Shown: in pieces, positions 1,592-1,757 of the stretch
Layout: each line of letters starts with the position of its first letter
Numbering within the stretch: the first letter of the stretch is position 1
Source of the DNA: Amoeboaphelidium occidentale
Lineage: Eukaryota
Assembly (NCBI GenBank): GCA_023515795.1
Contig: JALGPX010000091.1
Coordinates: 1 to 47,156, forward strand
Length of the DNA: 47,156 nucleotides
Direction of reading: 5' to 3'
Program-made: the position numbers and the translations under genes
Notes under the pieces: generated by a model
Told to the model about the DNA's origin: nothing
Seen by the model: the letters and a program-made list of their open reading frames with translations, nothing else
Database searches by the model: none

Positions 1592-1715
1592 TTGCGGAGG
1601 GTCTTACGGAGTACATTGCTATTTTATAGCGTTTGTTACATATACCGAGTTGAGTGATTGGGATTCCGCGTATTTCAGTCTAGTGCTGAATAACGTAGCA
1701 CAAAAGTGCTGATTA
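1592..1715 (+). ncRNA. Candidate Fanzor omegaRNA scaffold / element right end
   Basis: Directly after the Fanzor stop. Nested pairings TGCGGA(1593-98)/TCCGCG(1665-70), GTCTTA(1601-06)/TGGGAT(1659-64), CGG/CCG, GCTAT-TTT-ATAGC (1618-30). Then hairpins TTCAG..CTGAA (1674-1690) and AGCAC-AAAA-GTGCT (1697-1710). Boundaries are approximate. Confidence 0.65.
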
Positions 1716-1757
1716 CTTAAACTCCAAGCAAAAAAAACGTTTTCATCAAAGTTCAAT

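Follow-up and report, generated by a model that had tools for sequence, protein, structure and literature searches.

Aphelids are parasites of algae, in a lineage adjoining the fungi. The contig studied here, which was analysed over its full 47,156 nt (hereafter the window), comes from the aphelid Amoeboaphelidium occidentale; it is gene-dense and eukaryotic, has a GC content of 40%, and opens inside a Fanzor gene. A preliminary description had proposed that the interval following this gene, 1592-1740, contains an omegaRNA scaffold together with a guide taken from the flank of the element. The question is thus whether the interval is the end of a mobile element that encodes a guide RNA and, if so, at which base the scaffold would give way to the guide. 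We consider it highly probable that 1592-1724 forms the right end of a Fanzor1 element present in several copies, likely encoding an omegaRNA scaffold, with the adjoining host flank as its guide. The original proposal is upheld in its position, in a sharp end common to multiple copies and in a Fanzor1-like fold, and is replaced in its structure and guide coordinates. Features are collected in Table 1.

Table 1. Observed and predicted features at the Fanzor1 locus (window coordinates)
Feature	Position	Strand	Basis
Fanzor1 REC-lobe piece, frame 2	2-250	+	tblastn, 96% to P0001/P0002/P0004 over 2-220
Fanzor1 middle piece, REC/WED with TDG motif, frame 1	139-747	+	tblastn, motifs
Fanzor1 RuvC-TNB piece, frame 2	749-1591	+	PF07282, E 5e-11; PpFz1 and SpuFz1 best PDB matches
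Spacer after stop	1592-1610	+	Fold; adding the spacer gives z -1.06 vs -3.09
Candidate stem-loop 1	1611-1639	+	Core 1617-1622/1626-1631, pair probability 0.92; alone z -0.63
Predicted single-stranded linker, 7 nt	1640-1646	+	Fold; SpuFz1 comparison
Predicted terminal domain	1647-1724	+	Fold; 3' end from contig break points
Predicted guide, host flank of about 15 nt	1725-1739	+	End position; fold; length by comparison with PMC10432273 and PMC10711439
Host gene CH-RhoGEF-PH	1758-3851	-	ORF and domain match; convergent to Fanzor1 gene

The upstream gene

Because the contig begins inside the Fanzor1 gene, the left end of the element is not visible, and the 5' part of the gene is likewise off the contig. 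What remains is distributed over three pieces that jointly match paralogous gene models (tblastn) and end in a TAA stop codon at 1589-1591. The last piece carries the RuvC motifs GIDPN, DEFRTS and NRDVN, i.e. a D-E-D set with shifted glutamate, and a TNB zinc finger with all four cysteines intact (CxxC-CxxC, as CCKC..CDNC); the frame-1 piece has, within its WED domain, the TDG motif that is characteristic of Fanzor1 (PMC10711439). Single-sequence matches to solved Fanzors were weak (PpFz1, E 8e-4; SpuFz1, 3e-3). A profile built from 20 near relatives matched SpuFz1 at E 8e-22, PpFz1 at 2e-12 and TnpB at 1e-3, the Fanzor2 chain 9b0l being absent among its 11 matches. In a Foldseek search with a structure model of the paralog P0001 (mean pLDDT 64, pTM 0.42), ranks 1-7 were occupied by Fanzor1 chains, with Fanzor2 at rank 24. 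Motifs, profile and structural ranking therefore identify the upstream gene, which had earlier been called simply a Fanzor, as a Fanzor1, closer to Fanzor1 than to Fanzor2 or TnpB.

The locus copy, as assembled at the contig end, does not have an intact reading frame. It lacks 4 nt near 217 that other copies have and is thereby put out of frame (the X1 contig that covers the site has a 4-letter insertion behind 217), and one or more extra bases in A-runs at about 732-746 shift the frame again, other copies having single-letter losses at 732, 736, 739 or 746. The predicted protein of exactly this locus is P0018 (KAI3657916.1, labelled Amoeboaphelidium occidentale). Many gene models of the family are likewise incomplete or leave out conserved blocks; in the P0177 model the final unit stays in frame across WED, RuvC and TNB and contains every motif, so an intact family copy may exist. 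The P0177 and P0179 models consist of tandem partial Fanzor units, which reflect either insertions (nested or tandem) or repeats joined during assembly.

Closely related paralogs (P0001, P0003, P0004 and P0019) show 89-97% local identity, falling to 72-80% for gapped gene models, and additional paralogous models are present beyond these four. P0024 and P0026 belong to other Fanzor families (32-37% identity), and contigs of run X1 with loose ends at 1253, 1296, 1453 and 1500 match conserved RuvC patches only, which suggests that the organism has additional Fanzor families. The window itself holds a second, different Fanzor relic at 14014-14260 on the minus strand, of which a zinc-finger and RuvC-III piece containing a stop is all that is left; this piece matches P0031 at 63% identity over 54 aa and is situated between a host ORF at 14577-17084 (likely last exon to about 14315) and an ORF at 12711-13880. 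The stretch 14190-14290 folds strongly (z -3.1 against shuffles) and may mark the left end of a mini-element with an internal deletion; downstream of the relic hairpins are present, the fold being no better than shuffles (z -1.0 and -0.08).

A multicopy element that ends at position 1724

Twenty public runs contain the stretch or part of it, of which five were compared, all as contigs (X1, X2, X4, X5 and X7). Among the 18 right-side loose ends past 1700 in the contigs listed, nine fall exactly at 1724 and five more bring the number within 1722-1730 to 14, over four runs; at least three more loose ends at 1724 occur in X4. The other four listed ends lie earlier, at 1701, 1712, 1712 and 1718. 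The contig that leaves at 1701 re-matches the element end after a changed hairpin loop, and the two that leave at 1712, from two runs, have one common flank and may represent a shortened or diverged element end. In X1, six contigs of equal depth (104-108) bear the element end, each with a different flank, and the contig identical to our locus starts at 1695, a distance of 30 bases from 1725, as would be expected if an assembly built on 31-letter words branched between 1724 and 1725. The pile-up of loose ends and the X1 branch therefore place the conserved end of the element at 1724, with a doubt of one base because several flanks begin with C.

Conservation over the stretch from stop codon to right end thus drops sharply at 1724, copies being alike up to this base and different after it. 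Such an abrupt stop in the 3' flanks of other copies had been anticipated; the end near 1711 and the guide at about 1712-1735 originally suggested were some 13 nt too early. The last 30 nt of the element are identical to those of another single-copy X1 end. No second copy of 1592-1724 was found within the window. Scans of metagenome contigs gave 67 pattern matches by protein, of which none was confirmed, and no match by end motif; viral contigs scanned by protein gave none, and the seven Rfam matches at E up to 10 were all far from a gathering score. The single match of the end motif in prokaryote genomes, in Flavobacterium, was taken as chance, and a 36-nt match in X7 at about 1735-1770, considered as an empty site, was dropped as likely chance too.

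The stop codon of the neighbouring RhoGEF gene is 33 nt from the element end. In X2, X5 and X7 other strains have a different sequence from 2 bases past this stop, just before 1756; it contains a perfect 8-bp inverted repeat and is possibly the terminus of a different mobile element located in this intergenic position. Elsewhere in the window are a BRCA2 homologue with several BRC-like repeats (6864-9152, plus strand) and a small secreted-type gene, cysteine-rich and threonine-rich, in an inverted duplication (42327-42467 and 44001-44159).

Predicted fold of the element end

From 1647 onwards the element end is predicted to form one closed domain, in which a helix of 13 pairs (1647-1659/1711-1724, with three G-U pairs and one bulge) encloses an arm at 1668-1696 that includes hairpin 1674-1690, a hairpin at 1697-1710 and a weak two-pair hairpin at 1660-1667. 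Base 1647 would pair with 1724, i.e. the predicted helix shuts exactly on the element's last conserved base. The short hairpins 1674-1690 and 1697-1710, already recognised by eye, are recovered with pair probabilities of 0.93-0.96. The domain beats shuffled sequences (z -3.42, 0 of 200 as good; z -3.92, 2 of 500), and equal stability was reached by 1 of 3492 GC-matched windows and by 12 of 7182 contig windows, the windows being drawn from both strands at a step of 13 with the 1647-1724 region and N-containing windows excluded. The start at 1647 was picked after seeing the fold; starts at 1630 and 1640 give z -2.8 and -3.7, and for windows ending at 1724 z is -2.2 or below at nine of ten start points, the exception being 1592 (-1.06). 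The sense strand folds at -25.8 kcal/mol versus -16.3 kcal/mol for the antisense strand, the closing helix relying on G-U pairs that are largely lost on the opposite strand.

Structure is concentrated in this domain rather than spread over the interval, which the preliminary description had called unusually structured for an AT-rich genome: 1592-1740 as a whole reaches z -1.40 (20 of 200 shuffles as good), and its GC fraction of 0.40 equals that of the window. The region of the candidate stem-loop 1 is more variable between copies and weakly supported, a change at 1628 seen in three runs breaking one of its pairs. The spacer likely lies outside the mature RNA or at its 5' edge, as judged from the folding models. 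Its GCGGAG is able to pair with 1664-1669 or, in the locus copy, with 1722-1731, and when the spacer is attached 1592-1599 pairs with 1722-1731 at a probability of 0.77-0.89, in which case the guide start would be hidden. When 1611-1739 is folded, the flank at 1725-1739 is unpaired (z -3.2).

Variation between copies was set against this model using 20 single-base differences gathered for 1611-1724 from the run contigs, with gaps excluded. Of the 15 within 1647-1724, a small set from related copies in which five come from one loose-end consensus line, eight affect unpaired bases (against an expectation of 23%, P 0.011) and two more, at 1656 and 1657, keep their pair, giving ten non-disruptive changes (P 0.023); the latter two occur in every X2, X4, X5 and X7 contig covering them. 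The other five (1651, 1675, 1686, 1706 and 1718) break a pair, two-sided compensatory changes number 0 of 15, and one insertion, after 1672, falls in an internal loop. Judging from distance-to-end values, differences within about 30 nt of piece ends appear to be unlisted, so that the closing helix is nearly unseen on its 3' side. Stem-loop 1 is not backed by variation (P 0.19). Copy variation thus lends modest support to the 1647-1724 fold, without amounting to covariation.

Scaffold, guide and proposed function

Since the element ends at 1724, and 1712-1724 is conserved and predicted to supply the closing helix with its 3' strand, 1725 would be the first base of the guide. The models indicate a likely scaffold of about 115 nt (approximately 1611-1724) followed by a guide of about 15 nt (approximately 1725-1739). 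By analogy with SpuFz1, the 5' end of the RNA would lie near 1610-1615 and its length would be some 125-130 nt, inside the 75-150 nt spanned by the three solved Fanzor1 RNAs. The predicted guide is antisense to the stretch just past the RhoGEF stop, and no second match to it was found within the window.

If the locus behaves as SpuFz1, GtFz1, PpFz1 and SfAV Fanzor1 do, a transcript would run through the element end, be trimmed to about 125-130 nt and load onto the Fanzor1 protein, which, because the locus ORF is broken, would need to come from another copy. The loaded RNA would direct cutting of DNA that carries the TAM plus the guide sequence, i.e. the empty allele of the insertion site, and repair from the filled copy would then retain or spread the element; such repair-driven spread is a proposal, not a demonstration, in the literature (PMC10432273, PMC10711439, PMC11423790, PMC10530073). 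A bolder version, which we regard as doubtful, combines an architecture outside the three solved ones, namely a stem capped by a multiway junction, with frameshifted copies that act as a dispersed guide library: these copies would depend for protein on a rare intact member of the family, and each insertion would be driven into its own empty allele.

Alternative explanations

The structure first proposed, with a long nested stem at 1593-1670, the two short hairpins, an end near 1711 and a guide at 1712-1735, is the favoured fold when the RNA is made to stop at 1711, one flank does depart at 1712 in two runs, and a variant copy (X4, with a loose end before 1603) retains the GCGGA that follows the stop, so that this might pair with 1665-1669, perhaps as a pseudoknot, which the folding program does not model. 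Variation does not reject the stem either (7 of 9 changes non-disruptive, P 0.12). However, element sequence continues past 1712 in 15 of the 18 listed ends (counting the 1701 end through its re-match, and the 1718 end to 1718 only), the stem itself is no better than shuffled sequence (-16.8 kcal/mol, z -0.16, 80 of 200 as good), and its outer helix, 1594-1598/1665-1669, falls from a probability of 0.89-0.96 with a cut at 1711 to 0.009 once 1712-1724 are included. The long stem thus appears because the element end was placed too early; Fanzor1 RNAs are moreover reported to have no pseudoknot at the guide junction (PMC10432273, PMC10711439), and we judge this arrangement to be highly improbable. 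We give somewhat more weight, whilst still thinking it improbable, to the view that the folded end serves only or mainly as a DNA signal for a mobilising enzyme, as a TIR or a Helitron-type subterminal hairpin, with no use as RNA. Fanzor1 genes are carried by Helitron, Mariner, Sola2, MuDR and IS4-like elements (PMC3627910), both strands of 1647-1724 fold as single-stranded DNA (z -2.89 and -2.58), and hairpin 1697-1710 stops 14 nt short of the element end. Against this, the G-U dependence of the closing helix favours one strand, previously tested Fanzor1 ends gave RNA (PMC10432273, PMC10711439), and three end signatures of such carriers do not appear: the element ends in ACTC rather than the CTRR of Helitron1, the flank starts with CA at the locus and varies between copies rather than beginning with the TA duplication of Tc1/Mariner, and no AWWT follows 1724 at the locus. 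CAA occurs near the start of several flanks, a reading that is unreliable as a target duplication because it comes from merged consensus lines and mismatch-tolerant extension, and no fixed duplication could be read. No transposase family exceeded its Pfam cut-off in the 31 relatives scanned. The two roles can in any case coexist, TIR and TSD being part of Fanzor1 scaffolds (PMC10711439).

A closer contender, whose chance we put just short of even, holds that an omegaRNA functioned in the family at one time and that the locus copy is an inert fossil with an inherited fold from which nothing is made. It agrees with the preferred reading on the identity of the end and differs on present use. The two frameshifts of the locus copy, a copy-specific change at 1662, the incomplete state of many gene models and the spacer pairing that would mask the guide start all favour it. 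Its opponents are the identity of the last 30 nt to a second X1 end, the good fold of the terminal domain, the P0177 unit that reads through with all motifs, and the precedent of protein-less Spu-1 loci that yield working scaffolds (PMC10432273).

Comparison with known Fanzor1 systems

Reading 1592-1724 as a scaffold-encoding Fanzor1 end invites comparison with SpuFz1 of Spizellomyces punctatus, which the aphelid protein matches best both in structure and by profile (about 18% identity in structural alignment) and with which it shares a first RuvC motif of DPN form. The SpuFz1 RNA consists of a stem-loop 1, a 6-nt linker and a stem 2, with the guide from U76; the base of stem 2 is bound by protein (contacts from U35 to A75) and its distal part is dispensable (Saito et al. 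2023, PMC10432273). SpuFz1/Spu-1 and the aphelid element are both multicopy, with the RNA region between stop codon and right end, and the predicted aphelid order of stem-loop, short linker and terminal stem directly abutting a variable flank is that of SpuFz1. They differ in that the predicted aphelid scaffold is longer (about 115 versus 75 nt), its linker has 7 rather than 6 nt, its terminal stem would carry a multibranch junction in place of a simple hairpin, and the locus flank, unlike that of SpuFz1/Spu-1, does not start with TA.

The predicted total of about 129 nt is inside the published range of 75-150 nt (Xu et al. 2024, PMC11423790). As in GtFz1 and PpFz1, architecture beyond stem-loop 1 is variable; whereas these share a conserved 7-bp stem-loop 1, the aphelid candidate at 1611-1639 has a 6-bp core with a broken extension, and GtFz1 has three separate stem-loops where the aphelid RNA is predicted to form one closed domain (PMC11423790). 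Fanzor1 RNAs end in a double-stranded stem, and the SfAV Fanzor1 reRNA resembles the aphelid prediction in placing its terminal bases there, the proteins also sharing TDG in the WED domain; for SfAV, TIR and TSD are defined and the RNA was sequenced, whereas the aphelid RNA is a prediction (Yoon et al. 2023, PMC10711439).

KAI3657916.1 and four paralogs are rows in Table S2 of PMC10711439, as Fanzor HMM matches. In the searchable files of the PMC10432273 supplement the genus occurs 38 times, the motif and three accessions tried being absent from those files, and Amoeboaphelidium is absent from the two supplementary files of PMC10530073 that were searched. The full-text literature, subscription journals lying outside this scope, returned no text on aphelid or Amoeboaphelidium Fanzors or on transposable elements of A. 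occidentale. The locus thus likely represents a known Fanzor1 design in a new host, its protein already tabulated, with the modelled fold, the end and the predicted guide position of the likely omegaRNA as the new elements.

The aphelid Fanzor1 end leaves the established picture unchanged. It does provide a base-exact, testable scaffold and guide boundary for an aphelid Fanzor1, proteins of which have so far appeared in supplementary tables only and which, being distant from the solved Fanzor1s, could have a TAM of their own. For the natural guide-directed spread that the cited papers propose for Fanzors in their hosts, this family, with several copies whose flanks are mapped, offers a usable case.
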